From positions 41,349 to 105,348 of the forward strand of contig JBGULQ010000005.1 in NCBI GenBank assembly GCA_045116295.1: a stretch of 64,000 bases of DNA, read 5' to 3'. The translations under genes and the position numbers were made by a program. The notes beneath the pieces are model-generated. The model was not told the origin of the DNA and did no database searches. It worked only from the letters and a program-made list of their open reading frames with translations. How positions within the stretch are numbered: position 1 is the stretch's first letter; the number at the start of each line of letters is the position of its first letter. Source of the DNA: Alphaproteobacteria bacterium (GTDB taxonomy: Bacteria; Pseudomonadota; Alphaproteobacteria; RF32; CAG-239). Shown piece after piece: positions 2,967 to 40,228 of this stretch.

Positions 2967-3602
2967 TTATAATCTCTTATCCGAACTATGACAATAATCA
3001 GATATCGGACAGTTTTTACAATCCGGCCTCTGAGCTTTGCAAATATATCGACCGAACAAAACCAACCAATGATTAGCATACATCAAATATTTATCCGGCA
3101 AGACCTTCAATAAATCATTTTCTACATCAAGCGGAGTTTTCCCATCGCTGAAATCAAGCCGATGTGCAATTCTGAACACATGAGTATCAACTGCCATCGT
3201 TGGCTGATTATACCATACATTTCTTAACACATTTGCAGTTTTACGCCCAACACCTGCCAACGATTCCAAATCTTTTTGTGAACTTGGTACTTCACCGCCG
3301 AATTTTTCAACCAAACTCTGGCTCATACTCATAATGCTTTTAGCCTTGTTATTAAACAAACCTATGGTTTTTATATATTCTTTTAGTCCATCAACTCCCA
3401 AATCAAGCATTTTTTGCGGTGTATCTGCCACCTTAAACAATTCCTTTGTCGCCTTATTAACACCTTTATCAGTGCTTTGTGCCGACAGTATAATTGCCAC
3501 CAAAAGTGTATACGCATTTGTATACTCAAGCTCACTTTTCGGGGCCGGATTCGCATCAGCAAAAATCTGCATAATTTCCAAAATTTCAGATTTTTTTCTC
3601 AT
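2967..3602 (-). CDS. nth: endonuclease III (DNA glycosylase/AP lyase)
   Basis: An HhH-GPD fold and the C-terminal 4Fe-4S loop CKAQRPDCKNCPISDYC are present. The AGGAGGAG SD lies 7 nt before the ATG at 3602. Its ATGA overlaps the tsaD stop. Confidence 0.9.
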   Translation of the reverse strand: MRKKSEILEIMQIFADANPAPKSELEYTNAYTLLVAIILSAQSTDKGVNKATKELFKVADTPQKMLDLGVDGLKEYIKTIGLFNNKAKSIMSMSQSLVEKFGGEVPSSQKDLESLAGVGRKTANVLRNVWYNQPTMAVDTHVFRIAHRLDFSDGKTPLDVENDLLKVLPDKYLMYANHWLVLFGRYICKAQRPDCKNCPISDYCHSSDKRL

Positions 3603-4672
3603 GCTTTTACTCCTCCTGCTCCGGCAGCTTTTGGTGCATTTGCATCCAAAGGCCACCTTGGTCTTGGCTTAAAATCCAGGCCATCAACATATCCTTTTTG
3701 AAAACGCTCCAACCCAGCCCAAGCAATCATCACACCGTTATCCGTACAAAGTCTGACTGGTGGTGCCGCAAAAATCAACCCTTTATTGCTGGCCAATTCT
3801 TCAAGTTTTGCACGCAAATATAAATTTGCCGCAACGCCGCCGGCAACAACAACGTGCTTTCCATTAGGATAATTTTTCTTAAAATAATCAGCCGCTAAAA
3901 GCAATTTATCCAACAAACACTCACAAGCTGTTTTTTGGAAACACGCGCAAATATCCGCAACATCTTTTCGTGGTAAAACAGTTTCATCAATATCACCGTT
4001 TCCGTACGATTCGATAATTTTTCTTACTGCTGTTTTAAGCCCCGAAAAAGATAAATTCAAATCACCTGATCCGCGCAACGGATGTGGCAAACTAAAACGA
4101 TTTTCATCACCTATTGCCGCCATTTTTTCAATCATCGGACCACCCGGATACCCGAGTTTTAGCATTTTTGCTACTTTATCAAAAGCCTCACCGGCAGCAT
4201 CATCAATTGTTGTGCCAAGTCTTTCATAATCTCCGGCAGTTTTTACCACCAAAATTTGACAATGCCCACCTGATACCAACAGCAATAAATAAGGATATTC
4301 AACATCATTTGTCAGTCGTGAAACCAGCGCATGACCTTCTAAATGATTGACCGCAACAAACGGTTTATTTAATGCCAAAGACAACGCTTTTGCCGCCATT
4401 ACACCAACAACAACTCCGCCTATCAGCCCCGGTCCAGAAGCTGCTGCGACAGCATCAATATCTTTTGGTTTTATTTTTGCCCTATTAAACGCCTGTTCAA
4501 TAATATCATCTATATGATCAAGATGTGAACGCGCAGCAATTTCCGGCACAACCCCGCCAAAAACCTTGTGTTCTTCTTGCGACAACACAACATCTGATAA
4601 AATCTCTTTTTTATCATTCACTATTGCTGCTGCTGTTTCATCACAACTACTCTCAATACCTAAAACTATCAT
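3599..4672 (-). CDS. tsaD: tRNA N6-threonylcarbamoyladenosine synthase TsaD (Gcp/Kae1)
   Basis: N-terminus MIVLGIESSCDETAAAIV; metal-binding HxxGH motif (LEGHAL); about 357 aa. Confidence 0.95.
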   Translation of the reverse strand: MIVLGIESSCDETAAAIVNDKKEILSDVVLSQEEHKVFGGVVPEIAARSHLDHIDDIIEQAFNRAKIKPKDIDAVAAASGPGLIGGVVVGVMAAKALSLALNKPFVAVNHLEGHALVSRLTNDVEYPYLLLLVSGGHCQILVVKTAGDYERLGTTIDDAAGEAFDKVAKMLKLGYPGGPMIEKMAAIGDENRFSLPHPLRGSGDLNLSFSGLKTAVRKIIESYGNGDIDETVLPRKDVADICACFQKTACECLLDKLLLAADYFKKNYPNGKHVVVAGGVAANLYLRAKLEELASNKGLIFAAPPVRLCTDNGVMIAWAGLERFQKGYVDGLDFKPRPRWPLDANAPKAAGAGGVKA

Positions 4673-4751
4673 CTTTCATTCTTTTGATAAAATTTTAACC
4701 ATTATTGGCCTAATATAAATCAATAAAAATTTTTTTACAAAGGAAATAACG

Positions 4752-5711
4752 ATGGTAAAAAATAAATCGTCTTTTCTTGCCAAGACCGGCAAAATTTCTC
4801 TGTTTGTTTTTAGAACATTTGAAACAATTGTTTTTCTATCAGTTATCGGCTTAGCTATATTTATCTGGCAAAAACCTCAATATTTGCACAAACTGATAAA
4901 AACCGGCGACAACAATTTATCATCAATCAACGCTGCAAAAATTGATGAAATAAGCAACAAACTTGAAACTCTAACTCTCATCACCAAAAGTGACGCCGAA
5001 AAATCAGATTTATTGCAACAAAAATTCGAGCATTTTGATAAAGCAAAAGTAAATAGCGAAGAAATCATTTATCTCAACAATCAAATAAGTTCTCTCAACG
5101 AACAAATAAATTCCGTTCGTAACTCTACAAAAAAACTGTCGCAAACATCAAACAGTGGAGCTTTGCTCCTCACATCTGCAATGCTGATTCGCGACAATGT
5201 TTTACGCGGCATAGATTGCAAAAATGAATCTGAAGGTATGAAAATCTTAGCGCAAAACATTGATAATCTCACTCAAGATATTGATTTTGTGACCTCTCAC
5301 TGCAATCTGAATTTTGTTTCAAATAAAACTCTTGTTGCTAATTTTGATACTATTTATAAAAAAATTGAAAACAGCATGAAACCCGAAGAAGCACAAAACT
5401 GGAAGCAACGCCTTTCTGCAAAATTAGGAGAATATGTGCAAATTTCAAACCACAATCAACAACCTGATAACTCATATAATCCACTGCAACAACTACAGCC
5501 TATTAAAAGCCTCGTCGATAACGGCGACTTGTTAAAAGCAGCGCAACAACTATCTGCTCCAGAATATCAAAATATTATGACAGACAACGACATAATGAAC
5601 TGGGTCAATCAAGTTAAAAATCAAGCAGATTTTCATAAATCACTATCCAATATAATCAATGCATCATTATTAATAATGAAGGTAGAAGATGCCCAAAACA
5701 CAGCTGAATAA
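4752..5711 (+). CDS. membrane-anchored coiled-coil protein, HemX/alpha-Mic60-like (hypothesis)
   Basis: An AAGGA SD precedes the start. One N-terminal TM helix is followed by a long coiled-coil region. It diverges from tsaD, where alphaproteobacteria usually carry hemC-hemD-hemX(mic60). Confidence 0.5.
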   Translation: MVKNKSSFLAKTGKISLFVFRTFETIVFLSVIGLAIFIWQKPQYLHKLIKTGDNNLSSINAAKIDEISNKLETLTLITKSDAEKSDLLQQKFEHFDKAKVNSEEIIYLNNQISSLNEQINSVRNSTKKLSQTSNSGALLLTSAMLIRDNVLRGIDCKNESEGMKILAQNIDNLTQDIDFVTSHCNLNFVSNKTLVANFDTIYKKIENSMKPEEAQNWKQRLSAKLGEYVQISNHNQQPDNSYNPLQQLQPIKSLVDNGDLLKAAQQLSAPEYQNIMTDNDIMNWVNQVKNQADFHKSLSNIINASLLIMKVEDAQNTAE

Positions 5712-7089
5712 TATTTGGAATAAATATTACCAAAAAGCACCGGAAACACTTTTAAAAATATCAAAAATTAACCGTGTTGCCTGCGCGTTTAACAGTTGTA
5801 TAGATTCTGTTGTAAAATTATCCGGCAAAGAATTCGGAAAACTTTTTTTGCAACAAAAATCTTCATTAAAAGAATTAAGAAACATTGTTCATTATTCTGT
5901 AAATTCTCCTCTTGATATACTCCGCGGAATTTTTCGTTGCTTCACTAGCGGAATAGCTGAGGAATGGGTTGCAGATAAACCTGAAATGTTCGATTGGATG
6001 CTCAACAACTTAGGCACAAAAAAAATACAAGTAGGAGGTCAAGGCGGAATTATCGCAAACACCTTGTCCCTTACCGATATCAAACAAATAATTGTTCACA
6101 GTAACGCCTTGAGCAAGTTACAGGCAAGTATGTTCTTTGATCGCAAAAACTTACTGTCTTTTGATGCTAAAGGATCACTAAAACAAGCATCAAAAATTGA
6201 TCGTGATAAAATCTCATCAATTCACTGGATTGTTGAGTTTGATAAAGGTGATAAAATAACTCTGGAAGGACAAGAATTTATATGTCCTAAATCCAATCGT
6301 TTTATAATCACCTATGATCCTCCTTTGTTCAATTTTGTAATTGATAAAAATTTTATTGATTATACCAACAACAATAAATTTGATTATTTTATCCTCTCCG
6401 GATATCAAGCATTAAGCTCAAAAAATAACGCTCTCGCACACATTAAAAACAGTGTTAAAATTATTGATGATTGGAAAAAACAAAGTCCGCAAGCAATTGT
6501 TCATCTCGAAATCGCCTCAACTCAGGATAAAAAAGTTCTTAAAAATATTACACATTATATCATTCCAAACATTGACTCTATGGGAGTAAATGAGCGTGAA
6601 ACAATGGATGTTTTAGAAGCTCTAAACCAAAAAAGATTACTCGAAAAATGCAAACAAAATCCAACTTCATCAAACCTGTTTGATGCAATACTAAAAATAA
6701 AAACAAAACTTAAATGTCCGCGCATTCAACTGCATATGTTCGGACTATATGTTACAATACAAAACAAAAATTATCCTCTTTCTCCGACCAAGAACCGTAA
6801 CGGCATGATTTTAGCCGCAACAGCTGCTGCCAGCAAAGCATCACACGGACAACTCTCCCAACCTGATGATATTTTAAAATCATATGGTATGAGTGTATCC
6901 GATATTGGTATAAAAGAGCTGAAAAACCTTAGTTCTCATCTAAAAAAAGAAGAACTTTTATCAAAAGGAATTTGTGAATACAAAGGTTTTAATATTATAG
7001 CTGTTCCGACAATTTTAATTGATCAACCGAGAACATTGGTTGGCATGGGAGATACAATATCATCATTTTCCCTCATCGGTGCCTGTTGA
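5689..7089 (+). CDS. ADP-dependent sugar kinase family protein (ADP-GK/ADP-PFK, ribokinase-like superfamily)
   Basis: The protein aligns along its whole length to Pyrococcus ADP-glucokinase from memory. Shared motifs include GGQGGIIAN (vs GGQAGIMAN), IIVHSNALSKLQASMFFD (vs VIVHVPQLSRLQANLFLD), and the C-terminal catalytic motif TLVGMGDTISSFSLIG (vs TVGIGDTISSSAFIG). It overlaps the upstream ORF by 23 nt. Confidence 0.8.
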   Translation: MPKTQLNNIWNKYYQKAPETLLKISKINRVACAFNSCIDSVVKLSGKEFGKLFLQQKSSLKELRNIVHYSVNSPLDILRGIFRCFTSGIAEEWVADKPEMFDWMLNNLGTKKIQVGGQGGIIANTLSLTDIKQIIVHSNALSKLQASMFFDRKNLLSFDAKGSLKQASKIDRDKISSIHWIVEFDKGDKITLEGQEFICPKSNRFIITYDPPLFNFVIDKNFIDYTNNNKFDYFILSGYQALSSKNNALAHIKNSVKIIDDWKKQSPQAIVHLEIASTQDKKVLKNITHYIIPNIDSMGVNERETMDVLEALNQKRLLEKCKQNPTSSNLFDAILKIKTKLKCPRIQLHMFGLYVTIQNKNYPLSPTKNRNGMILAATAAASKASHGQLSQPDDILKSYGMSVSDIGIKELKNLSSHLKKEELLSKGICEYKGFNIIAVPTILIDQPRTLVGMGDTISSFSLIGAC

Positions 7090-7785
7090 TTCGTCAGACA
7101 ACCAAATTGAGCCTTTAACTTTTGTTTCTAAAAATTCACGATGATTTTTTTCTTCTTCTTCACTGATTGGAAAAACTCTCGCCTCGTGAAATACCCTGTC
7201 TCCGGAAAAATTTACAGTAGAATTATTATCTGCTTTTGTTTGATTAGATTCGCCAAGCATAGACGGCTCATCACCACCCAATAATTCCAAATAAACTTTT
7301 GCCAACAAATCAGCATCGAGTAATGCTCCATGCAATGTACGATTACTATTATCAACACCAAAACGCTTACATAACGCATCAAGATTATTTTTTGCGCCTG
7401 GGAACATTTTTCGTGCTATTTCCAGAGTATCTATAACCCTGTCAAAATCATAACCTTCTCGCCCTATTTTTTTGAGCTCATAATTTATAAAATTCATATC
7501 GAATTGTGCATTATGCGCCACCAAAATACCATCATCACCGACAAAATCTATAAAGTCTTGTGCAACATCGGCAAACACCGGAAAATCTTTTAAGAATTCT
7601 TCGGTTAACCCGTGTACGGCAACCACTTCCTCGGGAACATCTCTTTCCGGATTTATGTATTGATGATAAGTTTTTCCCGTAGGTAAATGATTGATCAACT
7701 CAACCGCACCTATTTCAACCAGCCTATCACCTTTATCCGGTGAAAGCCCTGTAGTTTCAGTATCAAAAACAATTTCTCTAACCAT
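7063..7785 (-). CDS. dnaQ: DNA polymerase III epsilon subunit (3'-5' exonuclease)
   Basis: The Exo I motif FDTETTG and the DEDDh family H motif (HGALLDA) are present. It lies next to coaE as in alphaproteobacteria. Confidence 0.9.
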   Translation of the reverse strand: MVREIVFDTETTGLSPDKGDRLVEIGAVELINHLPTGKTYHQYINPERDVPEEVVAVHGLTEEFLKDFPVFADVAQDFIDFVGDDGILVAHNAQFDMNFINYELKKIGREGYDFDRVIDTLEIARKMFPGAKNNLDALCKRFGVDNSNRTLHGALLDADLLAKVYLELLGGDEPSMLGESNQTKADNNSTVNFSGDRVFHEARVFPISEEEEKNHREFLETKVKGSIWLSDESTGTDEGK

Positions 7786-7788: not shown

Positions 7789-8373
7789 CTAATAGCCTTT
7801 TACATAGTCAATCATAGTTATAACATCAAGTTTGAGCAAATTGAGTGATTTATCGGTATTAATAACAATATCGGCTTTTTTCTTTTTCATTTCATTACTC
7901 ATCTGAACATTATTTATTTTATCAAAATCTTCAGCTTTTACATTATCTCTTTTCATTACTCTTTTCTTTTGTATTTCATAATCAACATCAGCCACCACTA
8001 CAAAATCACAAAATTTATCCAACTTCATCTCGTATAATAAAGCCACATCAATAAAAAAGCAGTCATTATACTTACTGTTTTTCTTTATCACATATTTCAA
8101 ATATTTCCGCAAAAACGGATGTGTTAATCCTTCAAGTTTTTTCAACTGCTTACTATCATTAAAAACTATATTTCGCAGTTTGCGTTTATCAACACACCCA
8201 TTTTCGACCACACTTGGAAAAACTTCTTCCACTTGCGCAATAAAAGATTTTTGAAAATACATTCTGCGTACCCATGCATCGACATCAAAAACAGTATATC
8301 CCTGCTCTCTTACAATCTTTGCAATAGTAGTTTTTCCGCAGCCTATAGAACCGGTAATTGCAATCAGTTTCAT
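7789..8373 (-). CDS. coaE: dephospho-CoA kinase
   Basis: The N-terminal P-loop reads ITGSIGCGKTT. 194 aa. Confidence 0.9.
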   Translation of the reverse strand: MKLIAITGSIGCGKTTIAKIVREQGYTVFDVDAWVRRMYFQKSFIAQVEEVFPSVVENGCVDKRKLRNIVFNDSKQLKKLEGLTHPFLRKYLKYVIKKNSKYNDCFFIDVALLYEMKLDKFCDFVVVADVDYEIQKKRVMKRDNVKAEDFDKINNVQMSNEMKKKKADIVINTDKSLNLLKLDVITMIDYVKGY

Positions 8374-10124: not shown

Positions 10125-10165
10125 ACCCCCTTATCCAAAAAAGATAAGGGGTTTTCTTTATTTTG
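10125..10165 (+). terminator. rho-independent terminator after rho
   Basis: A CCCCCTTATC ... GATAAGGGG stem is followed by TTTTCTTTATTTT. Confidence 0.7.
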
Positions 10166-10826
10166 AAAAATCAATTAAAAATCTTTCTACATCTCTCATT
10201 TTAAAAAATATATTTTTAACTCCTAATTTTTTGACTTTTTCAATATATTTATTGTTATTATTCATTTCACATCCCAAAAAAGCCACAACCGTCATTCCGG
10301 CTTTTAATCCGGCAGTCATACCTGCAATAGAATCCTCTATCACCACACAATTTTCAGGTTTTACCCCCATTTTTTGAGCTGCCAGTAAAAATAAATCTGG
10401 TTCCGGCTTGCCTTTTTTAACCAGATCAGCAGTAAAAAGACAATCATTAGGAATATATTTTTCAAGTTTTGCTGATTTTATTTTGAGTATTGTTTTTGAT
10501 AAAACACCGCCGGTTGCTACACATTGTAACAATGACTTATTTTTTAATATTTTAACTATACCATATACAGGTCTAATTCCGCCGTTTAATTTTTCCACAT
10601 CGATTTTTATAGCTTCTGCCCAGAAGTCATCACTTGTTATAATTCCGAGCTTATCAAGATTTTCTCGTTTGGTTTTATCGCTCATTCCGCCGCAATATTG
10701 ATTTATGGTATCAAAATCCCAGTTTAGAGAAAAATATTTATTGAGCATATCAAGTCTTGTTTCAAGCCACAATTTTTCCGTGTCGGCAATAACGCCATCA
10801 AAATCCCAAATAATTAGTTTTTTCAT
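10158..10826 (-). CDS. HAD-IA family hydrolase (beta-phosphoglucomutase/phosphatase-like)
   Basis: The start MKKLIIWDFDGVIADTE gives HAD motif I DxDG. A GGAG SD lies 7 nt upstream of the ATG at 10826. The HAD motifs S/T, K and DD follow. The track's longer alternative start is at 10895. Confidence 0.8.
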   Translation of the reverse strand: MKKLIIWDFDGVIADTEKLWLETRLDMLNKYFSLNWDFDTINQYCGGMSDKTKRENLDKLGIITSDDFWAEAIKIDVEKLNGGIRPVYGIVKILKNKSLLQCVATGGVLSKTILKIKSAKLEKYIPNDCLFTADLVKKGKPEPDLFLLAAQKMGVKPENCVVIEDSIAGMTAGLKAGMTVVAFLGCEMNNNNKYIEKVKKLGVKNIFFKMRDVERFLIDFSK

Positions 10827-11017
10827 TTTTACTCCACCAAAAATTGAATCCGTCAGAAGCCCGTACAGAGGAATTTTGATTATTTTATGATACAAGTATT
10901 AAGAATAAATAAAAATACTCTCCAGAGTCAAAAAAACGCCTTTTTTACCATCATATAAAAAATCAAACAATAATCCCCTCACCGTCAAAAGTGAGGGGAT
11001 TATTGTAAAATTAGTCG

Positions 11018-13998: not shown

Positions 13999-15837
13999 AT
14001 GCAGAAACATTATGATGTCATAGTAGTCGGCGGCGGACATGCCGGCTGTGAAGCATGCGCAGCATCGGCTCGCATGGGAGCTAAGACTCTGCTTATTACA
14101 CACAAAAAGTCTACCATTGGTGAAATGTCATGCAACCCTGCAATCGGCGGACTTGGTAAGGGGCATTTTGTACGTGAAATAGACGCTCTTGATGGCTTAA
14201 TGGGGCGCGTTATTGATAAAGCCGGAATACAGTTCAGAATGCTTAATATGTCAAAAGGACCTGCAGTCCGCGGACCGCGTGCTCAAGCAGATCGTGATTT
14301 GTATCGCAAATATATGCTTGAGGCACTTAACGCGCAACAAAATCTTGAAATAATGGAAGCAGCAGTTGAGGGACTGTTGTTTAACAATCATAATGTCAAT
14401 GGCGTAAAACTTTCTGATGGTACAGAAATATTGTCTTCATCTGTTATCTTAACTACCGGAACTTTTTTAAATGGTGTTATGTTTATTGGTCACGAAACTA
14501 CTGTTGGCGGAAGAGTTAACGATGTTTCATGTGCTGGTATAACACCGTATTTAAAGTCTATGGGTATTAAAGTTGGACGCTTAAAAACTGGTACGCCTGC
14601 TCGCTTGAACGCTGATTCAATAAACTGGGATATACTCGATGTTCAGTCAGGAGACAATCCGCCTCAACCATTTTCATATTTAACCAAAGAAATCACAAAT
14701 CCCCAGATAAACTGCTATATAACTCACACCAACGAAAAAACTCATAAGATAATTCGTGATAATTTTGAAAAATGCGCCCTTTTTTCCGGATTAATTAAAG
14801 GCGTCGGTCCAAGATATTGTCCCAGTATTGAGGATAAACTGGTAAAATTTGCAGATCGAACCAGTCACCAAATTTTCCTTGAACCCGAAGGTTTAAATAG
14901 CAAAGTTGTTTATCCGAATGGACTTTCAACCTCGCTTCCTGCAGATGTTCAGGATGAATTTTTGCATACCATAAAAGGACTGGAAAATGTAGAAATAATA
15001 CGATATGCCTATGCAATTGAATATGATTATGTCGATCCGCAAGAACTTGATCATTGCCTGCAGGTTAAAAAAATACCAAATCTTTATCTTGCCGGCCAAA
15101 TCAATGGAACAACCGGTTATGAAGAAGCCGCAGCACAGGGAATATTGGCGGGTATAAACGCCGCTCTCAACGCCACCGACAAAGGCAATGAGTTTACTAT
15201 TGATCGCAGTCAGGCATATATTGGTGTTATGGTTGATGATCTCATAACCAAGGGTGTTGACGAGCCATATCGTATGTTTACATCGCGTTCTGAATATCGC
15301 TTATATCTTCGTGCTGACAATGCTGATGCCCGACTAACGGAAGCCGGCTATAAAATTGGTTGTGTTGGTCAATATCGTTATGATGTATTCAAAACCAAAC
15401 AAGAACAAATTTCAAGGCTCAGAGCAATGGTTGACGAATTATCTATACGACCTCTTGATATGGAAAAATACGGCATCAAAAAAGATTCGCGCCGCACGGC
15501 TTTCAATTTAATGTCTTATGAAGATGTTTCACGTGAAACAATTTTAAAGATATGGCCACAACTGGCTGATTTTAAACCCGAAATTTACGAAGCTGTCGAA
15601 ATAGAGGCAAGATATTCCGGCTACATAAAAAGACAAATGGCAGATATTGAAGTATTTAAAAAAGATGAACAGCTAAAAATTCGTGATGATATAGACTATA
15701 GCAAAATAGGCGGATTATCCAACGAAATGGTGATAAAACTTAGTCGAGTTCGCCCCTCAACTATTGGTGAAGCATCGCGAATTTCCGGAGTAACACCAGC
15801 GGCAATAATGGCAATATTGGGATACATGAAAAAATGA
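13999..15837 (+). CDS. mnmG: tRNA uridine 5-carboxymethylaminomethyl modification enzyme MnmG (GidA)
   Basis: The FAD-binding N-terminus [13 protein letters not shown] is present. 612 aa. Confidence 0.97.
15525..15540. promoter_or_regulatory. parS centromere site TGTTTCACGTGAAACA (inside mnmG coding)
   Basis: This is a perfect 16-bp match to the canonical parS palindrome. It encodes DVSRET. Confidence 0.85.
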
Positions 15838-16484
15838 ATAATTTAGCAGAGCAAATTATTGACAACAAAGGATACCCGAGCAAAGAGCAAGCGCTTAAAA
15901 TATGGGAGGGCGGAATAGTTTACCGCCTTTCGCGCCCATACGGCTTTACATTTGAAAACGAATATCGCTTTCACACCATGGGCGTTGCTTCCGCTGCGGA
16001 AAAAATCGCTCGCTATATTCCTTCCATGGATCCCGAAAAAGCCTTTGTTCTCGGATTATTGCATGATTATGGCAAAAGAATTAACGAGCGCATAGAAGGG
16101 AGATTTCATGGGCAAGAAGGTTATGAGCAAATGCTTAAAGCCGGTTATCCTGATGTTGCAAAAGTTTGCTTAACTCATACATTTGCAAAACCGGATTTTC
16201 CTGACGAAGAATATTCATATCCGCAGGAATGGAAAGATTGGGCTCGTAATATACTAAAGAATATAACATATGACGATTATGACTATTTAATTTGTCTTTG
16301 CGATAAATTTTTTGAAGGGCTTTCAATAGTTTCAATTTCAAATCGTGTAAAGGGTATTGTTAACCGCTATCGCCTCAGTAAGATAGAAGAAAATTACCTG
16401 CTTGCAGAGTCAATGCAGCTTAAAGATTATTTTGATAAAAAGACCGGTCAAGATATATATAAAATTTTGGATATAGAGGACTAA
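15834..16484 (+). CDS. HD-domain phosphohydrolase (small, 216 aa)
   Basis: The H ... HD ... H ... D metal-ligand pattern is present (HTMGV, LLHDYGK). The start ATGA overlaps the mnmG stop. Confidence 0.8.
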
Positions 16485-16485
16485 A

Positions 16486-17316
16486 ATGCAACTGTTCAGC
16501 TATCATACTCATACAAATTTTTCAGACGGCAAAAACAGTATTAAAGAAATGATTGAGCAAGCCGTTTCTTTAGGTTGGAAAGAGCTTGGAATCAGCGATC
16601 ATTTAATAGTCCATAAAAATATTCCTAACAGTCAATCATGGCCAAGATGGAAAAAAGAGCCAAATATATATTACTGGGACTTTAATAGTATATATGAAAA
16701 ATTTGCTCGTCACATTGAAGAAATACGCAAAATATCTGCAAATTTCCCCATAAAGGTGAGGGTAGGTGCCGAGGTCGATTTTTTCACTTACGATGGTTGG
16801 CTTGATGAATTTACAAAACTCCGTGAAAAGCTGGACTTTGACTATTGTATTTCCGGCAATCATTATTTATTCTTAGATGATGCCGGTGAAAATATCATTG
16901 AATTCAAAGATTCTGAACTCCTACCATTAGATAAACAAATAAATATGATTAGGCAACATTTCAAAATTATATGTCGAGCCGCCAGCAGTGGTTTGTTCGA
17001 TTTTATTGCTCATATAGATTATATCAGAAAAATGCCAATTTATAACACAACCGACTTTAGTAACGAAAAAGCAGAATTAATAAAAACACTTGCCGCACAT
17101 AATGTTGCTACCGAAATCAGCACTAAAGGTCTCAGAAAAAGTGATTATTTTTATCCTGACAGCGATATGCTGAAAAACGCAATTAAAAACAATGTCAAAA
17201 TAGTTATAAGTGATGATGCGCACCGCACAAACGAACTAGGATATAGATTTGACTATGCTGAAGATACTCTTCGCCAATACGATTGCACTTCGCGATGGAA
17301 TTTTGTTGAGAAATAG
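16486..17316 (+). CDS. PHP-family phosphoesterase, HisJ/HisK-type histidinol-phosphatase-like
   Basis: Motifs line up with B. subtilis HisJ from memory: YHTHTNFSDG, RVGAEVDF, IAHIDY, STKGLRK and ISDDAHR. It starts 1 nt after the HD gene stop. Confidence 0.8.
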   Translation: MQLFSYHTHTNFSDGKNSIKEMIEQAVSLGWKELGISDHLIVHKNIPNSQSWPRWKKEPNIYYWDFNSIYEKFARHIEEIRKISANFPIKVRVGAEVDFFTYDGWLDEFTKLREKLDFDYCISGNHYLFLDDAGENIIEFKDSELLPLDKQINMIRQHFKIICRAASSGLFDFIAHIDYIRKMPIYNTTDFSNEKAELIKTLAAHNVATEISTKGLRKSDYFYPDSDMLKNAIKNNVKIVISDDAHRTNELGYRFDYAEDTLRQYDCTSRWNFVEK

Positions 17317-17483
17317 ATTCCGCTTTGTTTTGTATGTTACTGTTTTCTTTTAATAATTTATTGAGTTGTTAATTTTTTGATTCATTGTGTTTTGGTAATG
17401 GCTTGAATTAGTGCCATATTTTTATGTGTTTATAAGTCGTTTTTTTATTTTTAAAAAATGATTTTAAAATATATAAAAAGAGT

Positions 17484-18116
17484 ATGAATAATTTTTGCGA
17501 AAAATATAATGTTTCACGTGAAACATATTTAAAACTTGACCGCTACTGCCAATCATTAACAGAGTGGCAAGAGAAATTTAACCTCATAAGCAAAAACACA
17601 TTAAATGATATTTGGAATCGCCATATAGAAGATTCGGCGCAAATTTTTGAGCACATTCCATCAAAAGCAAAAAAACTTCTCGATATTGGAAGTGGAGCAG
17701 GATTTCCCGGAATGGTGATAGCTATTATAGCATCTGAAAAAACACCGTATTTAAATATTACTCTCGTTGACAGTATACATAAAAAAACACTGTATTTAAA
17801 CCACGTCAAAGAACTAAACAACCTTTCAAATGTTGAAATTTTAAACGATAGGGCTGAAAACATCACTGGCTCTAAGTTTGATGTTATAACTGCACGTGCC
17901 GTAACTGCTCTTACGGAACTGCTAAAATATTCCCACCCGCTGCTCTCAAAAAACGGCGTGTGTATATTCCTCAAAGGTCGCAGTTATAAAGATGAAATAT
18001 TTACAGCAAGACAAAACTGGAATTTTGACTGCAAGGAAATCAACAGCCAAACATCAGACGAAGGAAAGATTTTAATTATCAGCAATATTGCAAAAAAAGG
18101 AGAAAAAAATGCCTAG
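17484..18116 (+). CDS. rsmG: 16S rRNA (guanine527-N7)-methyltransferase RsmG (GidB)
   Basis: The SAM motif LDIGSGAGFPG is present. 210 aa. It follows mnmG as in the gidAB cluster. Confidence 0.9.
   Translation: MNNFCEKYNVSRETYLKLDRYCQSLTEWQEKFNLISKNTLNDIWNRHIEDSAQIFEHIPSKAKKLLDIGSGAGFPGMVIAIIASEKTPYLNITLVDSIHKKTLYLNHVKELNNLSNVEILNDRAENITGSKFDVITARAVTALTELLKYSHPLLSKNGVCIFLKGRSYKDEIFTARQNWNFDCKEINSQTSDEGKILIISNIAKKGEKNA
17510..17525. promoter_or_regulatory. parS centromere site TGTTTCACGTGAAACA (inside the rsmG 5' end)
   Basis: This is a perfect 16-bp parS. It encodes NVSRET at rsmG codons 9-14. Confidence 0.85.
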
Positions 18117-18888
18117 AATAATTGCGATTGCCAACCGCAAAGGCGGAGTTGGAAAAACCACAACCACGGTCAATGTTGCCACAGCAATGGCTGCCACAGG
18201 CAAAAAGGTATTGGTCATTGATCTTGATCCGCAGTGCAACGCCACTACGTCGCTTGGGTTTGATAAACACAACAATGTTGTATCTTCATACGATGTTATT
18301 ATCGGAGAACGCAGTTTAAACGAGGCTGTTGTCTGGACTGAAATTCCAAATTTTTCTCTCATTCCATCGTCACCCGATCTCGCCGGAGCAGAAGTTGAAC
18401 TTATTGACAGAGAACGTCGTGAATTTTTTCTCCGCGATGCACTGAACAAAACCATTGGTAATTACGATTACGTTCTCATCGATTGTCCGCCGTCGCTTAG
18501 CTTAGTAACAATCAATGCTCTTGTTGCCGCAGATGCGGTTGTTGTCCCTCTGCAGTGTGAATATCTTGCACTTGAAGGCATGAGTGATTTAATCAGCAAC
18601 ATTAATTTAATTAAAAAACATTTTAACCCGAAACTTGAGTTACAAGGGGTTGTGCTAACAATGTATGATGGTCGCAATAATTTGACGCAGATGGTTGAAG
18701 AAGATGTTCGCGGATATTTCGGCAAAAAAGTATACAAGACCGTTATTCCGCGGAATGTCCGTGTTTCTGAGGCTCCATCACACGGAAAACCTGTATTATT
18801 ATATGATTTTAAATGTCCTGGCTCACAAGCATACATAAGTTTGGCCGGAGAAATGTTAAAAAGAGAAAAGGAATTATTGGCATGCTAG
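18109..18888 (+). CDS. parA: chromosome partitioning ATPase ParA
   Basis: A GGAGA SD precedes the start. The deviant Walker A reads ANRKGGVGKTTT. Confidence 0.95.
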   Translation: MPRIIAIANRKGGVGKTTTTVNVATAMAATGKKVLVIDLDPQCNATTSLGFDKHNNVVSSYDVIIGERSLNEAVVWTEIPNFSLIPSSPDLAGAEVELIDRERREFFLRDALNKTIGNYDYVLIDCPPSLSLVTINALVAADAVVVPLQCEYLALEGMSDLISNINLIKKHFNPKLELQGVVLTMYDGRNNLTQMVEEDVRGYFGKKVYKTVIPRNVRVSEAPSHGKPVLLYDFKCPGSQAYISLAGEMLKREKELLAC

Positions 18889-19778
18889 AAGATAACAAAA
18901 GAAAAAGTTTAGGTCGTGGGCTTGGTGCTTTACTTGGTGAAGATGCATTTTTACTGACAGAAGAAACACCTATAGTTGAAAATACACCAAAAGACGGCAT
19001 TAAAAAGGTTTCTGTAAAACTTTTATATGCAAGCAAATATCAACCTCGCTCTGAATTTAATCAAGAAGCACTTGATGCCTTGACGGTATCAATAAAAGAA
19101 AAAGGTGTCTTGCAACCGCTGTTGGTTCGTGCAAAAAACAACGGAAAATACGAAATCATCGCCGGTGAGCGACGTTTTAGAGCGGCATGCCAAGCCGGAC
19201 TGACAGAAATTCCGGTTATAGTAAAAGAAATGGCTGACAAGGAAGTTCTTGAAGTTGCGTTGGTTGAAAATCTTCTGCGTGAAAATTTGTCTGCCATTGA
19301 AGAGGCCGAAGGACTGCAACGCCTAATTAACGAATTTTCTCATACTCAGGAAGCTCTTTCTAACGTGATTGGAAAATCACGTAGTTATATAGCTAACACT
19401 TTGCGCTTACTTTCGCTTCCATCTTCAGTTCAGCAGATGATTCGTGATAACAAATTAACCGCAGGTCATGCCCGTCCGTTGATTGGTTTGGAAAATGCCG
19501 AAGCCATAGCCGAAAAAATTGTTGCTAAAGGGCTAAGCGTACGTGAAGTTGAGCAGCTTGTTCAAAAGGGCAAAGAAGGCAAAACTAAAGTCACCAAAAA
19601 AACAAATTCAGATACTGCAGATATTGAAAAAATGCTCCGTCGTGATTTAGGACTGAAAGTAAAAATCTCAACAGCATCAAACGGCAGTGGTAAAATTGTT
19701 CTTTCTTATGCAGATTTAGCAGAACTCGACCGCATATTGGATATACTGAATAACAGCAAAAAAAGTCAAAATGCTTAA
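18882..19778 (+). CDS. parB: chromosome partitioning protein ParB
   Basis: An ATGCTAG overlap joins it to the parA stop. The ParB box GERRFRA and an HTH are present. Confidence 0.95.
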   Translation: MLEDNKRKSLGRGLGALLGEDAFLLTEETPIVENTPKDGIKKVSVKLLYASKYQPRSEFNQEALDALTVSIKEKGVLQPLLVRAKNNGKYEIIAGERRFRAACQAGLTEIPVIVKEMADKEVLEVALVENLLRENLSAIEEAEGLQRLINEFSHTQEALSNVIGKSRSYIANTLRLLSLPSSVQQMIRDNKLTAGHARPLIGLENAEAIAEKIVAKGLSVREVEQLVQKGKEGKTKVTKKTNSDTADIEKMLRRDLGLKVKISTASNGSGKIVLSYADLAELDRILDILNNSKKSQNA

Positions 19779-26355: not shown

Positions 26356-28839
<2,484 letters not shown>

Positions 28840-28939
28840 TTAAACTCTCATCACTATACATCATTTTGAAAAAAAACATAGCAAAAACTCACAAAAATTA
28901 ACCATTTTGTGTATATTTTTACTGGTGTTTGGCGGGTTT

Positions 28940-31684
28940 TTAGTGAGCATCACGCCAATTATTGCCGATTCCCACTTCAGCAGTAAACTTTACGTCATAA
29001 TTTACCGCACTTTCCATGGTTTGCTTTAGCAGTTTAGCAACAATTTCAACCTCATCTTCCGGCGCTTCAACTACCATTTCATCGTGGACTTGTAACAAAA
29101 TTTTTGACTTAAAATTACCTTCAATCAACGCATTATGCATATTATTCATAGCTCGTTTCATAATATCAGCAGCACCACCCTGCAAAGGTGCATTCATTGC
29201 AGCTCTTTCCGCAAACGACGCAATTCGTTGATTTTTATCATTAATTCCGGCAATCGTGCATTTTCTGCCGAAGGGCGTAACCACATATCCGTGTTTGTGC
29301 GCAAAATCTATGCTTTTTTCCATAAAAACCTTTATCTCAGGCATTTTTTCAAAATAAGCATCTATATACTGTTTTGCTTCTGCCGGTGAAACCCCGATTT
29401 GCTTTGACAATCCGTATTGTGAAATACCGTAAATAACCCCGAAATTAATCGCTTTTGCGTGACGCCTGATTACCGGTGTAACTTCTTCCTTTTTCAACCC
29501 GAAAACACGCATTGCTGTTGCCGTATGCACATCAATTTCATTTGCAAAAGCTTCTTTTAAGGCTTTTACATCAGCCAAAACCGCAAGCAGCCGCAATTCC
29601 ACTTGCGAATAGTCGGCAGATATCAGTTTGTGCTTTGGTGCAGCGACAAAACATTGTCTTATCTTTTGCCCGTCATCACTGCGAATGGGAATATTTTGCA
29701 AATTCGGATTATTTGAAGACAACCGTCCGGTATTAACATTGGTCTGATCATAGGTTGTATGAATGCGGTTGTTTTTATCCAACTGCTGGAGCAGGGTGTC
29801 TGTATAAGTTGTTTTAAGCTTATTGATAGAGCGCCACTCCAAAATCTTTGCCGGTAAAGGGTGCTCTTCTGCCAGTTGTTCCAAAACATCTGCACCGGTT
29901 TGAAAATTTCCGCTGCTATGTTTTTTTGACTGCAGACCGAGCTTGTTGTATAAAATCTCGCCGATTTGTTTTGGTGAACCGATATTAAATGTTTCGCCGG
30001 CAATAGAAAAAATTTCTTGTTCAATATCCTGTTGGCGTTTTTCCAGTTGTTTACTAAAATCGGAAAGCTGTGCAACATTTACCGTTACTCCATTTTTTTC
30101 CATCTCAAACAAAGTTGCAACCAGCGGGCGATCAAAATGCTCATAGATGGTTACCATATGTTCATTTAACAATCGTTGCCTCAAGATGCCGCAAAGCCTA
30201 AAAACAAAATCAACTTGCTCACACATATAGTCGCATAATACGTTCTCATCGGCATTATCTGGATTAATTCGCTGTTTTCCCACCCCAAAAACTTCATCAA
30301 AGCTTTTTCCTTTAATATCCAGAAACAATTCCGATAAGGTACCTATGTCGTGGCTGTGGCTTGAAGAGTCCAAAACATAAGACATAACTTCAATATCATC
30401 ATAAGGAAAAATCCGGCACATATCACCACTTAACATATCCAAAAAATGCATATCAAGTTTGATATTGTGTCCGATTTTTAAAATCGATTGAGAGTTTAAT
30501 ATCGGCAATAAACAGTCAAAAACTTTTTTTGCACTCATTCCGTGTTTTTTACTTGTTGTCGTACTAAACAAATCAAATGTTTGATTTTGTTGCTCTTTTT
30601 CTAAGGGAATATAAGCCGCTTTCCCGCTATCAATTGCCAACGCTATACCTAAAGGGACATCAAAAACCGGATTATTTCCTGTTGCCAAAACTTTTATTGC
30701 CAGCATCTGACTGTTCAGATTTTTCAGCCACAATACTAAATCCGCTTCATTGTCAATTAAGCGATAATCGGTCTTAATTTCAGGAGTTGCCGCTTCTGTA
30801 ACAACACCGGCTTTTTTGCATTGCTCTTCAACCCATTTTGCCAACCGCAATTTAAGGCTGTTAAAACCATATTTCTCAACAAAATTTTGTACCACCGCCA
30901 AATCCGGACAATGAAATTTATAATAAGTCACCGGATTTTCTACCGGAACGTTGCTTTTCAGAGTAACTAATTCCAGCGATATTTTGGCATTTTCTATGTT
31001 TGCCAATAACGTTTCCCGCCTTTTGTTCTGCTTTATCTCGCCGGCATGAGCCAAAACCTCATCAAGTGAGCCGAAAGTATTCACCAGTTCTGCCGCAGTC
31101 TTGGGACCAATCCCCGGCACTCCCGGAATATTATCAATACTATCTCCCGAAAGTGCTTGCACATCAACAACTTTTTCCGGATAGACTCCAAATTTTTCTT
31201 TAACATCATCAGGGGTAAAAAACTTGTCTTTCATCGGATCATAAAACATAACCCCCGGACGAATTAACTGCATCAAATCCTTATCGGCCGAAACCACAAT
31301 AACTTCCATACCGGCATCTAGTGCTTGTTTTGCATAAGTTGCAATCAAGTCGTCAGCTTCATATCCCTCAATTTCAAGATGATTTAGATTAAGCACGTCA
31401 ACTGTTTCACGAATAATCGGAAATTGCGGAATTAATTCTTCCGGAGGTTCGGCTCTATTTGCCTTATAATCGGGAAAAATATCATTACGAAAATTTTTTC
31501 TTTTGGCATCAAATAACACCAAATTGTACTTGCAATCAAATTTGGCTGACAGCTTCATAAACATATTGGTAAAACCATACACGGCATTAACCGGAGTGCC
31601 GTCCGGAGCCGTCATCGGCGGCAGTCCGTAAAACGCTCTGAAAATATAGCCCGAACCATCGACTAAACATATTTTTTCAGCCAT
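28940..31684 (-). CDS. polA: DNA polymerase I
   Basis: It has 914 aa with a 5'-3' exonuclease domain, a 3'-5' exonuclease domain, and a polymerase domain (motif A DYSQVELR, motif C HDE). Confidence 0.97.
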   Translation of the reverse strand: MAEKICLVDGSGYIFRAFYGLPPMTAPDGTPVNAVYGFTNMFMKLSAKFDCKYNLVLFDAKRKNFRNDIFPDYKANRAEPPEELIPQFPIIRETVDVLNLNHLEIEGYEADDLIATYAKQALDAGMEVIVVSADKDLMQLIRPGVMFYDPMKDKFFTPDDVKEKFGVYPEKVVDVQALSGDSIDNIPGVPGIGPKTAAELVNTFGSLDEVLAHAGEIKQNKRRETLLANIENAKISLELVTLKSNVPVENPVTYYKFHCPDLAVVQNFVEKYGFNSLKLRLAKWVEEQCKKAGVVTEAATPEIKTDYRLIDNEADLVLWLKNLNSQMLAIKVLATGNNPVFDVPLGIALAIDSGKAAYIPLEKEQQNQTFDLFSTTTSKKHGMSAKKVFDCLLPILNSQSILKIGHNIKLDMHFLDMLSGDMCRIFPYDDIEVMSYVLDSSSHSHDIGTLSELFLDIKGKSFDEVFGVGKQRINPDNADENVLCDYMCEQVDFVFRLCGILRQRLLNEHMVTIYEHFDRPLVATLFEMEKNGVTVNVAQLSDFSKQLEKRQQDIEQEIFSIAGETFNIGSPKQIGEILYNKLGLQSKKHSSGNFQTGADVLEQLAEEHPLPAKILEWRSINKLKTTYTDTLLQQLDKNNRIHTTYDQTNVNTGRLSSNNPNLQNIPIRSDDGQKIRQCFVAAPKHKLISADYSQVELRLLAVLADVKALKEAFANEIDVHTATAMRVFGLKKEEVTPVIRRHAKAINFGVIYGISQYGLSKQIGVSPAEAKQYIDAYFEKMPEIKVFMEKSIDFAHKHGYVVTPFGRKCTIAGINDKNQRIASFAERAAMNAPLQGGAADIMKRAMNNMHNALIEGNFKSKILLQVHDEMVVEAPEDEVEIVAKLLKQTMESAVNYDVKFTAEVGIGNNWRDAH

Positions 31685-31760
31685 TGCAAATCTCCTTGAT
31701 ACAACCTGCTATAATATAATTTACAAATGCTTTTTAGCCAAGAATTATTATTAAGTTTTT

Positions 31761-32117
31761 CTATCTCCGCCAAGCATCAGCTATATGCTTAAAACTCATT
31801 TTTGAACTTACCAAAAAAGCATCAAATCTGATATCAAAATCACTAAATTGCGGGTGGTTTTTAACAAAGTTTTCCGCTGCCTTCCAGATTCGCTGTTGCT
31901 GTTGTGGCAAAATTGCATAAGCTGCACCATCAATGCTTGAGCGCTTTTTAACCTCAACAAACACCAACAAATTATTTTTTGCCACAATCAAATCAATTTC
32001 ACCGGCGCCGGTTCTTCTGCCGGTAACGTAGTTGCGCGCAACAACCCTAAAACCATGCAGCAAAAAATATACAGCCGCAAGTATCTCCGCAATTTTTCCG
32101 CTAACTCTGCTGTTCAT
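31761..32117 (-). CDS. yraN: YraN-family (UPF0102) endonuclease
   Basis: The core GEIDLIVAKNNLLVFVEVKKRS is present. It overlaps the rsmI end, as in the rsmI-yraN arrangement. Confidence 0.85.
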   Translation of the reverse strand: MNSRVSGKIAEILAAVYFLLHGFRVVARNYVTGRRTGAGEIDLIVAKNNLLVFVEVKKRSSIDGAAYAILPQQQQRIWKAAENFVKNHPQFSDFDIRFDAFLVSSKMSFKHIADAWRR

Positions 32118-32943
32118 TTTTTATTTTTACCGCCAGTTTATATACATCATTTTTATTGAGTTTATATTCGGTAACAACCTCTTTTACGGCCGTTTTTAAT
32201 AGCATGTTTTTCATTTTACTCCGCAAAATTTTCTCAACATCAACAGTCGGAGCGAGATTTTCAGTCGGCGGAGCAACCATAAAAACAATTTCTCCCTTTG
32301 GTGGATTTTTTTCAAAATAAGCTATTACATCATCAGCCGTTCCGGTTTTACATTCCTCATGAATTTTGGTGATTTCCCTTGCTACTGCAAAATCTCGATT
32401 CGCAAAAATTTTTTTAGCAACACCAAGTGTTTTTAGTAATCTTGGAGCCGTTTCATAAAACACCAATGTCGTATCAATTCCCGCCAATTCTTCAAACAAA
32501 TCTTCACGTGCCTTATCTTTATTAGGTATAAAACCTGCAAACATAAAACGATTAGTCGGCAACCCTGACATCTGTAATGCGCAAATTATTGCGCAACACC
32601 CCGGCACCACTGCAAACGGAGTATTTTGTTCATGACACTGCTTTATCAGTTTGTACCCCGGATCTGAAATCAATGGCGAACCGGCATCACTCACTTGCAC
32701 CACACATAAACCCTGATTGACCAAATCAATAACCTCCTGAGATTTTTCCTGTTCGTTATGGTCATGCAGGGTAATAAATTTTTTGCCGCTAAAACCTATG
32801 TTAAGCAACCCGAGTAATTTTTTTGTTACTCTTGTATCTTCACAAGCAATTACATCTGCATCGCTTAACAATGTTTTTGCTCGTTCGGAAATATCTGATA
32901 GGTTTCCGATAGGTGTTGCAACAATATACAATCCGCTAGTCAT
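32101..32943 (-). CDS. rsmI: 16S rRNA (cytidine1402-2'-O)-methyltransferase RsmI
   Basis: The N-terminal tetrapyrrole-methylase-fold region LYIVATPIGNLSDISERA ... ACEDTRVT is present. Confidence 0.9.
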   Translation of the reverse strand: MTSGLYIVATPIGNLSDISERAKTLLSDADVIACEDTRVTKKLLGLLNIGFSGKKFITLHDHNEQEKSQEVIDLVNQGLCVVQVSDAGSPLISDPGYKLIKQCHEQNTPFAVVPGCCAIICALQMSGLPTNRFMFAGFIPNKDKAREDLFEELAGIDTTLVFYETAPRLLKTLGVAKKIFANRDFAVAREITKIHEECKTGTADDVIAYFEKNPPKGEIVFMVAPPTENLAPTVDVEKILRSKMKNMLLKTAVKEVVTEYKLNKNDVYKLAVKIKNEQQS

Positions 32944-33009
32944 TTCTTTGCTTTACAATCCATGTTTTTTAATTTAAATTACAATCATTGTTTTATATTT
33001 TAGGATAAA

Positions 33010-34311: not shown

Positions 34312-34371
34312 TTGGATATGGCAGATTTTTTACTTGAAATTAATAACAAAATCTGCCCTTATGTGAATAAA

Positions 34372-34470: not shown

Positions 34471-34488
34471 TTATAAACAGAGCGAATT

Positions 34489-37090: not shown

Positions 37091-37091
37091 G

Positions 37092-40223: not shown

Positions 40224-40228
40224 TCAAA

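Follow-up and report, generated by a model that had tools for sequence, protein, structure and literature searches.

An intact member of the mostly archaeal family of ADP-dependent sugar kinases (PF04587) is encoded in the window, meaning the whole 64-kb stretch of DNA that was analysed. The residues at its specificity positions suggest a cytoplasmic enzyme of the ADP-dependent glucokinase (GK) type, EC 2.7.1.147-like, a reading to which we assign a probability of roughly 0.7. The gene and its immediate surroundings are arranged as follows.

3599..4672, minus strand: tsaD, a neighbour of the kinase locus
4752..5711, plus strand: partner gene, encoding a 319-aa clade-restricted protein whose model shows an N-terminal transmembrane helix, then long helices resembling coiled coils and, at the C terminus, a compact helical domain
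5678..5711, plus strand: partner/kinase junction, read from the sequence, with a purine-rich, Shine-Dalgarno-like GAAGGTAGAAG (5678..5688) directly 5' of the kinase ATG (5689), and a 23-nt overlap of the two genes (5689..5711)
5689..7089, plus strand: ADP-dependent sugar kinase gene (PF04587, putatively glucokinase-type), 466 aa, defined by an ORF with an ATG start, Pfam and PDB matches and an AF2 model
7063..7089, spanning both strands: convergent 27-nt overlap between the kinase 3' end and the dnaQ-type exonuclease gene, from ORF coordinates, with the same layout in locus L008
7063..7785, minus strand: dnaQ-type exonuclease gene (Pfam PF00929)
7789..8373, minus strand: coaE, a further neighbour of the kinase locus

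Membership of the family is evident at the level of both sequence and structure. The kinase matched the Pfam model ADP_PFK_GK (PF04587) with 244.6 bits (E=2.2e-72; cutoff 27 bits), a full-length match that covers model positions 2-429 of 430. Its sequence also matched 14 ADP-dependent kinases in the PDB (5.4e-56 to 1e-24), the top one being 6c8z, a Methanosarcinales phosphofructokinase (PFK) ancestor (5.4e-56). The AF2 model (pLDDT 92.6, pTM 0.91) has a two-domain ribokinase-like fold, with a large alpha/beta domain and a small lid domain. Foldseek aligned it to all solved ADP-dependent kinases with TMq values of 0.67-0.86, reaching 0.85-0.86 for P. furiosus GK (1ua4), T. litoralis GK (4b8s), the M. 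jannaschii enzyme (5od2) and AncMsPFK-F6P (6xio), whereas ATP-dependent adenosine kinases and ribokinases reached only 0.21-0.39; the best Foldseek E-value was again that of 6c8z. Hence, with its best HMM and structural matches being ADP-GK/PFK enzymes, and with the Asp of the GxGD motif present, the protein belongs with the ADP-dependent sugar kinases of PF04587 known from archaea and eukaryotes.

The first-pass annotation had reached the same family through a block-by-block resemblance to P. furiosus GK (PfGK). The six blocks it quoted fall at residues 116-127, 134-151, 178-187, 233-242, 345-354 and 449-459, and the PfGK strings it set beside them are accurate, as judged from an HMMER alignment to 1ua4 (E=3.3e-43). 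It had also named two observations that would count against the assignment. The first, a best match to an ATP-dependent ribokinase or PfkB protein, is at odds with the Pfam, PDB and Foldseek results; the second, absence of the catalytic Asp, is at odds with the presence of D455.

Overall similarity does not favour a glucokinase, as the NCBIfam ADP-PFK model TIGR02045 gave the highest score of the three equivalog models (210.8 bits, below its cutoff of 408.1) and 6c8z is the top PDB match. The two ADP-GK models were also missed, with 184 bits against a cutoff of 554 for NF010641 and 179.7 bits against 387 for NF010642, which places the kinase outside the Thermococcales-type equivalog groups and in a separate subfamily.

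The case for a glucokinase is instead made by individual residues, whose invariance was scored over the best 120 of at least 979 homolog clusters. The motifs and specificity positions lie as follows, numbered in the kinase unless AncMsPFK is named.

5791..5805, plus strand: sugar-binding motif NxNxD, here NxCxD (N35-S-C37-I-D39), aligned to AncMsPFK N32/N34/D36 and to NTNID of PfGK
5962..5964, plus strand: E92, the Glu of glucose-using (GK and bifunctional) enzymes (AncMsPFK E90; role from PMC7948494), invariant in 120/120
6034..6042, plus strand: sugar-binding motif GGQ (G116-G117-Q118), aligned to AncMsPFK G114-G115-Q116, with G116 and Q118 invariant in 120/120
6217..6225, plus strand: S177-I-H179, spanning the AncMsPFK K179 and N181 positions, with H179 invariant in 120/120
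6295..6318, plus strand: N203-R204 (catalytic Arg, AncMsPFK R206) through D210 (AncMsPFK R212 position), with N203, R204 and D210 invariant in 120/120
6502..6510, plus strand: HxE motif of the large domain (H272-L-E274), aligned to HLE of PfGK and HVE of AncMsPFK, invariant in 120/120
7042..7053, plus strand: GxGD motif (G452-M-G454-D455), whose Asp is the catalytic base, matching VGIGDTIS in PfGK and D471 in AncMsPFK, with G452, G454 and D455 invariant in 120/120

The HxE motif presumably functions in metal and phosphate binding. One deviation from the motifs is C37, which takes the place of the second Asn in NxNxD. N35 and D39 do not vary among the 120 closest homologs, and position 37 is Asn in 95 and Cys in 25 of them. 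These Cys carriers are, with a single exception (P0050), the 24 closest relatives (P0001-P0024).

Substrate preference was read from four positions, AncMsPFK E90, K179, N181 and R212, at which the kinase carries the signature E-S-H-D (E92, S177, H179, D210). Mutational and comparative work has found K179, N181 and R212 to be conserved only in PFK-specific and bifunctional enzymes, and E90 only in GK-specific and bifunctional ones (PMC7948494). The same study reported a His at the N181 position of T. litoralis GK, an approximately 1000-fold rise in KM for F6P in the K179A mutant, and rises of 200- to 1000-fold for Ala substitutions across K179, N181 and R212 (PMC7948494). The kinase has the Glu and the His of the GK type, neither Lys nor Arg at the K179 and R212 positions, and hence lacks the F6P-phosphate binding set. 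This pattern extends to its relatives: among the 120 closest homologs position 177 holds one of L, S, M, A and P but in no case Lys, position 210 is Asp in every one and never Arg, and most of the clade reads ELHD. The glucose-specific enzymes read ECHD (P. furiosus and P. horikoshii GK) or ELHD (T. litoralis GK), the Mj, AncMT and AncMs enzymes read EKNR, and P. horikoshii PFK (PhPFK) reads AKNR. The likeness of ESHD to ECHD and ELHD makes the kinase most likely an ADP-dependent glucokinase, rather than a PFK. The first-pass description of a hexose or other sugar kinase was therefore right about the ADP-type sugar kinase, and need not be left undecided about the sugar, as the specificity residues point to glucose.

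In the proposed reaction, glucose and ADP would yield glucose-6-phosphate and AMP. The sugar would be bound between the small lid and the large domain through N35, D39, E92, G117-Q118 and H179, while R204 would keep hold of ADP at its terminal phosphate, and the catalytic base would be D455 of GxGD. PFK and bifunctional enzymes bind the phosphate of F6P through two basic residues, which are replaced here, K179 by Ser and R212 by Asp; since these are missing, the kinase should act on a non-phosphorylated hexose. Family-level knowledge points to ADP as the phosphate donor, and the signature, together with gene context in relatives, suggests glucose as the substrate. Physiologically, the enzyme would bring glucose into the glycolysis of a gut or rumen alphaproteobacterium that is uncultured, a role that we infer; the one other glycolytic gene within the 64-kb window is iPGM (55854..57389).

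The relatives of the kinase place it in a discrete bacterial group. The first-pass view that the family is rare in bacteria holds insofar as PF04587 as a whole is a small family, with 601 clusters at 50% identity, but homologs of the kinase by itself fill at least 979 clusters at 90% identity, and the closest among the matches listed are bacterial; almost all of the matches listed are 462-474 aa long. The nearest genomes are alphaproteobacterial MAGs of rumen, yak and human-gut origin, which fits the host-associated setting that had been suggested, and a few members of the bacterial subfamily occur in Myxococcota and Verrucomicrobiota (Opitutales). Neighbour joining with 100 bootstrap replicates gave a subfamily of 19 leaves with a bootstrap of 94, all reading ExHD. 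It was placed with PfGK in the ExHD half of the tree, apart from the KN(R) sequences, although this split between ExHD and KN-type enzymes had a bootstrap of only ~52%. The phylogeny proposed in the first-pass annotation thus delivered a discrete subfamily but not a supported sister group: nodes beyond the subfamily had bootstraps below 10, and hence no claim is made on the donor lineage. Gene context among the relatives concerns the same sugar. On a Myxococcota contig the start of the subfamily kinase lies 4 nt beyond a GH31 alpha-glucosidase gene, and on another contig glucose-6-phosphate isomerase (PGI) and phosphoglucomutase (PGM) genes lie less than 5 kb from the kinase.

Within the alphaproteobacterial lineage the gene is a stable, vertically inherited core gene, widespread among these uncultured gut and rumen bacteria. 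Recent horizontal transfer into the genome was considered and rejected, as synteny is kept down to 49% identity, and the GC content of ~0.33 is within what is found locally (0.30-0.42). Coordinates and Pfam matches agree with the earlier placement of the gene between tsaD and dnaQ/coaE in a housekeeping region, and the overlap with an upstream coiled-coil membrane-protein gene that had been described is exact, that gene encoding an N-terminal hydrophobic helix and long helices. The 23-nt overlap is also present in loci L008 and L012, with a 12-nt gap in L010. Pairing of partner and kinase was seen at 12 of 12 alphaproteobacterial loci, against none of four loci from other bacteria, and so looks lineage-specific. 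The overlap and the Shine-Dalgarno-like sequence are compatible with translational coupling, and the kinase gene would be co-transcribed and is probably translationally coupled with the partner gene. Such coupling carries no information on whether partner and kinase share a function. Promoter and terminator scans of 4400..7400 performed no better than on shuffled sequence, and Rfam and tRNA scans returned nothing near the kinase locus.

The positive-inside rule predicts that the bulk of the partner protein is periplasmic. Profile searches of the PDB and of a 5.8-billion-protein database with the partner gave no match outside its clade, and Mitofilin (PF09731) was detected in 0 of 23 members of the partner family, even at E<=5. 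The architecture of alphaproteobacterial Mic60 (bioRxiv 10.1101/2022.06.14.496148) was used as a yardstick, comprising a transmembrane segment, a coiled coil, a C-terminal helical domain and the hemC-hemD-mic60-orf52 neighbourhood. The partner is predicted to resemble Mic60 in its N-terminal transmembrane helix, central coiled-coil-like helices, C-terminal helical domain and periplasmic bulk, as well as in co-transcription with a downstream gene.

The readings that compete with a glucokinase differ in which of these features they emphasise. Action on another non-phosphorylated sugar (mannose, glucosamine, fructose or 2-deoxy sugars), or as a hexokinase of broad range, in the C37 sub-clade at any rate, is unlikely. 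In its favour, the Cys shared by the kinase and its 24 closest relatives replaces a residue, AncMsPFK N34, that is counted among the sugar-contacting and hinge residues (PMC7948494), and the kinase is only ~28% identical to characterised GKs, below all equivalog cutoffs. Against this, every other glucose-contacting position is as in the characterised glucose-specific enzymes, most of the clade keeps the Asn, and the alpha-glucosidase, PGI and PGM neighbours of relatives all concern glucose or glucose-6-phosphate. We regard it as very doubtful that the kinase is an ADP-dependent PFK, or a bifunctional PFK/GK of the Methanosarcinales/Methanococcales kind, that supplies the PFK step of glycolysis. 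The TIGR02045 score and the two best matches to 6c8z are what such an enzyme would lead one to expect, but that score is about half of its cutoff, and the subfamily stands apart from the KN(R) sequences in the tree. Moreover, K179 is replaced by S/L/M, N181 by His and R212 by Asp, the latter two without exception in the 120 homologs, and these are the positions at which Ala substitution so greatly raises the KM for F6P.

Other alternatives concern what the protein does beyond, or instead of, phosphorylating glucose with ADP. Least probable of all is a protein that has retained the fold while taking its phosphate from ATP or a different donor, or one that persists as a relic without catalysis: the distance of the kinase from the characterised enzymes, in a mesophilic bacterial lineage, is set against the invariance of all catalytic motifs in the 120 closest homologs, and against the model's TM of ~0.86 to ADP-dependent kinases versus at most 0.39 to ATP-dependent relatives. 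As far as we know, the phosphate donors of all PF04587 enzymes characterised so far are nucleoside diphosphates, ADP or others. It is highly improbable that kinase and membrane protein form a functional module, membrane-tethered or engaged in sugar sensing or uptake, with a role outside plain glycolysis; the first-pass suggestion of a non-glycolytic role tied to the membrane protein finds no backing in a pairing limited to the alphaproteobacterial clade or in the predicted periplasmic location of the partner's bulk. A more elaborate and very unlikely scenario would join several of these observations. The kinase and its coupled, clade-restricted partner would constitute a two-protein module of gut and rumen Alphaproteobacteria, in which the partner would either be a strongly diverged envelope protein of the Mic60/HemX type or serve as a periplasmic sensor built on a four-helix bundle, the kinase possibly came from an Asgard-like archaeal donor long ago, and the C37 sub-clade perhaps shifted in sugar specificity. 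Were this true, the kinase would, besides its part in bulk glycolysis, have a role connected with the envelope or with sugar sensing.

On the preferred reading, an ADP-dependent glucokinase, the find is solid but fairly ordinary, as databases already name many bacterial copies. NCBI labels such proteins "ADP-dependent glucokinase/phosphofructokinase", and knowledge of the family is therefore unchanged. What is new is the specificity detail, the ESHD signature that most likely points to a glucokinase. Recent reviews treat ADP-dependent glucokinases as features of hyperthermophilic archaea and animals. The searchable literature yielded no characterised bacterial ADP-GK, and likewise no metabolic description specific to these gut Alphaproteobacteria. 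Metabolic reconstruction of these MAGs would gain a definite assignment of the first glycolytic step, to glucokinase rather than PFK, and a mesophilic bacterial enzyme is on offer for testing specificity rules derived from archaeal and ancestral proteins.

Among known systems, mouse ADPGK has the fold in common with the kinase (TM 0.68), with a weak and partial sequence match (4.6e-08). Outside the bacterial subfamily, the named proteins that come closest are ADP-GK/PFK homologs of Heimdallarchaeota/Heimdallarchaeaceae. One of these, P0180, is 33% identical to the kinase (212 bits) and reads EYHD, and another, P0195, reads EFHD; scores fall from 296 to 212 bits between the bacterial subfamily and these homologs, with the branching order at a bootstrap below 10. 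The ADP-PFK of P. horikoshii (1U2X/3DRW; TIGR02045; EC 2.7.1.146) shares family and fold, but differs at all four specificity positions and has a lower TM of 0.72-0.73. The bifunctional ADP-PFK/GK enzymes (AncMsPFK 6C8Z/6XIO, M. jannaschii 5OD2, AncMT 5K27) have the same fold as the kinase, carry Glu at the E90 position, keep every catalytic motif and include the best overall sequence match, whereas their EKNR contrasts with the ESHD of the kinase, which is without K179, N181 and R212. The Thermococcales GKs (P. furiosus 1UA4, P. horikoshii 1L2L, T. litoralis 1GC5/4B8S; EC 2.7.1.147) share the PF04587 fold, with TM values of 0.85-0.86 for 1ua4 and 4b8s and 0.73 for the open apo 1l2l, as well as the GGQ, NR, HxE and GxGD motifs and the ExHD signature. 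The kinase differs from them in its low identity, its mesophilic bacterial host, the Cys at the second Asn of NxNxD and its separate, well-supported subfamily.

The open reading frame at 5689..7089 is almost certainly a functional kinase of the PF04587 family. It matches Pfam PF04587 (ADP_PFK_GK) over its full length with 244.6 bits, relative to a gathering score of 27, and its sequence matches to 14 distinct PDB entries were all ADP-dependent glucokinases (GKs), phosphofructokinases (PFKs) or reconstructed ancestors, the strongest being to 6c8z (5.4e-56), followed by the P. furiosus GK (3.3e-43). An AlphaFold2 model using 35 homologs as input (pLDDT 92.6, pTM 0.91) resembled the closed-form ADP-dependent kinases 1ua4, 4b8s, 5od2 and 6xio with TM of 0.85-0.86, whereas the next fold class, the ATP-dependent adenosine kinases and ribokinases, reached just 0.21-0.39. 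The GxGD motif, G452-M-G454-D455, is invariant across the best 120 of at least 979 homolog clusters, as are N35, D39, G116, Q118, N203-R204 and H272-x-E274. The first-pass annotation had proposed a PF04587-type kinase, rather than an ATP-dependent PfkB protein, from sequence blocks shared with the P. furiosus GK; this assignment holds, with an ADP-dependent top match and the catalytic Asp of GxGD present as D455. All six sequence blocks it quoted were found in the translation, and its P. furiosus strings agree with the HMMER alignment to PDB 1ua4.

The likely activity is less easily read. The kinase scored 210.8 bits to the NCBIfam ADP-PFK equivalog (cutoff 408.1), and 184 (cutoff 554) and 179.7 (cutoff 387) to the two ADP-GK equivalogs. 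Hence it falls outside every characterised group, and its activity is not decidable from overall similarity; the call was made from specificity residues fixed by experiment in AncMsPFK (PMC7948494). Of these, K179, N181 and R212 are kept only by enzymes that are PFK-specific or bifunctional, with K179 touching the phosphate of fructose-6-phosphate (F6P), and the KM for F6P rising ~1000-fold in K179A and ~200-fold in N181A and R212A (PMC7948494). E90, in turn, is a conserved residue of GK-specific and bifunctional enzymes alone, and the T. litoralis GK has His at position N181 (PMC7948494). In alignments, the kinase has E92, S177, H179 and D210 at E90/K179/N181/R212. Among the best 120 of at least 979 homolog clusters, E92, H179 and D210 never vary, and the residue at position 177 may be L, S, M, A or P but is Lys in none. 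This ESHD combination is like those of the biochemically glucose-specific GKs of P. furiosus and P. horikoshii (both ECHD) and T. litoralis (ELHD), and unlike those of the bifunctional M. jannaschii enzyme, AncMT and AncMsPFK (all EKNR) or the P. horikoshii PFK (AKNR). Hence the kinase bears a glucokinase signature. Motifs, fold and signature are direct observations; ADP as donor, glucose as substrate and the physiological role are inferences, and we put the chance that the enzyme is an ADP-dependent glucokinase in particular at roughly 0.7.

In the most likely reaction, the beta-phosphate of ADP would pass to O6 of glucose, yielding glucose-6-phosphate and AMP. D455 would act as the base and R204 would be positioned on the transferred phosphate, with N35, D39, E92, G117-Q118 and H179 predicted to hold domain closure over the sugar. 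The second Asn of NxNxD is replaced by Cys in the query (C37, codon 5797..5799) and in 25 of the best 120 homologs (of at least 979). With the sole exception of P0050, these carriers belong to the 24 nearest relatives (P0001-P0024); Asn is kept in the other 95 and in all structural references. The substitution could subtly change sugar specificity.

With the kinase as query, a word-indexed search returned 979 or more clusters of homologs (90% identity), and almost all of the best 120 are 462-474 aa long. Several listed homologs carry the NCBI name 'MAG: ADP-dependent glucokinase/phosphofructokinase [Alphaproteobacteria bacterium]'. Close relatives occur in MAGs of uncultured 'Rhodospirillales' or 'Azospirillum sp.' obtained from the rumen, the yak omasum and the human gut; these labels probably denote GTDB's gut order RF32. 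With HMMER, an exhaustive search against 1.84 billion representatives recovered 601 clusters at an E-value of 1e-3 or below, of which 129 were at 1e-30 or below, hence the whole family is small. Within it the query group is discrete, with ~10 full-length representatives at 296-528 bits and the next score at 212 bits, and includes proteins of Myxococcota and of one Opitutales MAG. Neighbour joining of 141 sequences (100 bootstraps) recovered this group as a clade of 19 leaves (support 94), all 19 with the ExHD signature, in the family's ExHD half alongside the P. furiosus GK; the ExHD/KN split had only ~52% bootstrap, and no sister group of the clade was supported. The nearest named relatives past the score gap are the Heimdallarchaeia proteins P0180 and P0195, with GK-type EYHD and EFHD and a branching order that is not supported.

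The kinase gene and other features of the window are as follows:
3599..4672, minus strand, tsaD
4752..5711, plus strand, 319-aa clade-restricted membrane protein (the partner), directly upstream of the kinase in gut/rumen Alphaproteobacteria
5689..7089, plus strand, kinase gene, ATG start, 466 aa
7063..7785, minus strand, dnaQ-type exonuclease gene
7789..8373, minus strand, coaE
10158..10895, minus strand, HAD-superfamily hydrolase (HAD_2), adjoining rho
13999..19778 and 26356..45368, replication-origin region genes
26356..28803, minus strand, gyrB
34375..34470, plus strand, bacterial small SRP RNA (RF00169, 67.4 bits), immediately upstream of dnaX
43920..45368, minus strand, dnaA
55854..57389, minus strand, cofactor-independent phosphoglycerate mutase (iPGM), the sole other gene of glycolysis seen in the window

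The window spans the chromosomal origin region (dnaA, dnaN, recF, gyrB, polA, dnaX, parB, gidA, mnmE and rho), hence the kinase lies within one of the genome's most conserved neighbourhoods. The iPGM gene means that lower glycolysis is encoded at least in part. By its motifs, the HAD_2 hydrolase would be of the beta-phosphoglucomutase or sugar-phosphatase type, and related loci (L008, L010 and L012) each have a counterpart. Besides RF00169, the 64-kb window contained no Rfam matches, and no tRNA genes. At the 3' end of the kinase gene, 27 nt (7063..7089) are shared with the 3' end of the convergent exonuclease gene, leaving no space for an intrinsic terminator between the two; L008 has this arrangement too.

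The first-pass annotation had correctly described the reading frame, its neighbours tsaD, dnaQ-type exonuclease and coaE, and the 23-nt overlap of the partner's end with the kinase start, where the purine-rich GAAGGTAGAAG lies immediately 5' of the ATG. The same overlap occurs in L008 and L012, and a 12-nt gap in L010. Its question of whether close relatives share this locus can be answered: a partner homolog directly precedes the kinase in 12/12 alphaproteobacterial loci examined, at kinase identities of 49-88%. The pair is divergent from nth-tsaD in the three annotated contexts (L008/L009, L010/L011 and L012), and is kept in L010, where a glutamine amidotransferase replaces dnaQ/coaE downstream. 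This retention and the recurring overlap indicate an old operon, inherited vertically, and an overlap of this kind would fit translational coupling.

A kinase role tied to the membrane protein, as initially suggested, found no support: 0/4 loci of subfamily members from other bacteria have a partner homolog, hence the kinase does not depend on it. The partner, in which no known domain was found, combines an N-terminal transmembrane helix with coiled-coil-like helices and, at its C-terminus, a confidently predicted helical domain, and its C156 and C184 are invariant across 21 sequences. Its Lys-rich N-terminus ahead of the helix suggests an N-in orientation with the bulk periplasmic, in which case a cytoplasmic kinase would be unlikely to touch it directly. 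In the order of its elements the partner resembles alphaproteobacterial Mic60, although no homology was detectable between them and the usual Mic60 neighbours hemC/hemD/orf52 are absent around it. Loci of other bacteria instead fit a glucose-phosphorylating enzyme: on a Myxococcota contig (L013 3588..7437) the kinase starts 4 nt past an 802-aa GH31 alpha-glucosidase gene (Gal_mutarotas_2 and Glyco_hydro_31), which looks like an operon freeing glucose and then phosphorylating it, and another non-alphaproteobacterial member has glucose-6-phosphate isomerase and phosphoglucomutase genes within 5 kb.

The ADP-dependent kinase family and its reaction are already well known; bacterial homologs were noted before (PMC7948494) and are covered by NCBI naming. 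In the literature searched, of incomplete coverage, neither a bacterial member with biochemical characterisation nor a publication on the gut-alphaproteobacterial subfamily came to light. New here are the specificity call, the outline of a discrete bacterial subfamily, the evidence of a stable core gene in a widespread gut/rumen lineage and the testing of the partner-gene idea. Set beside the known enzymes, these results should be no surprise to a specialist, and their value is for annotation and enzymology.
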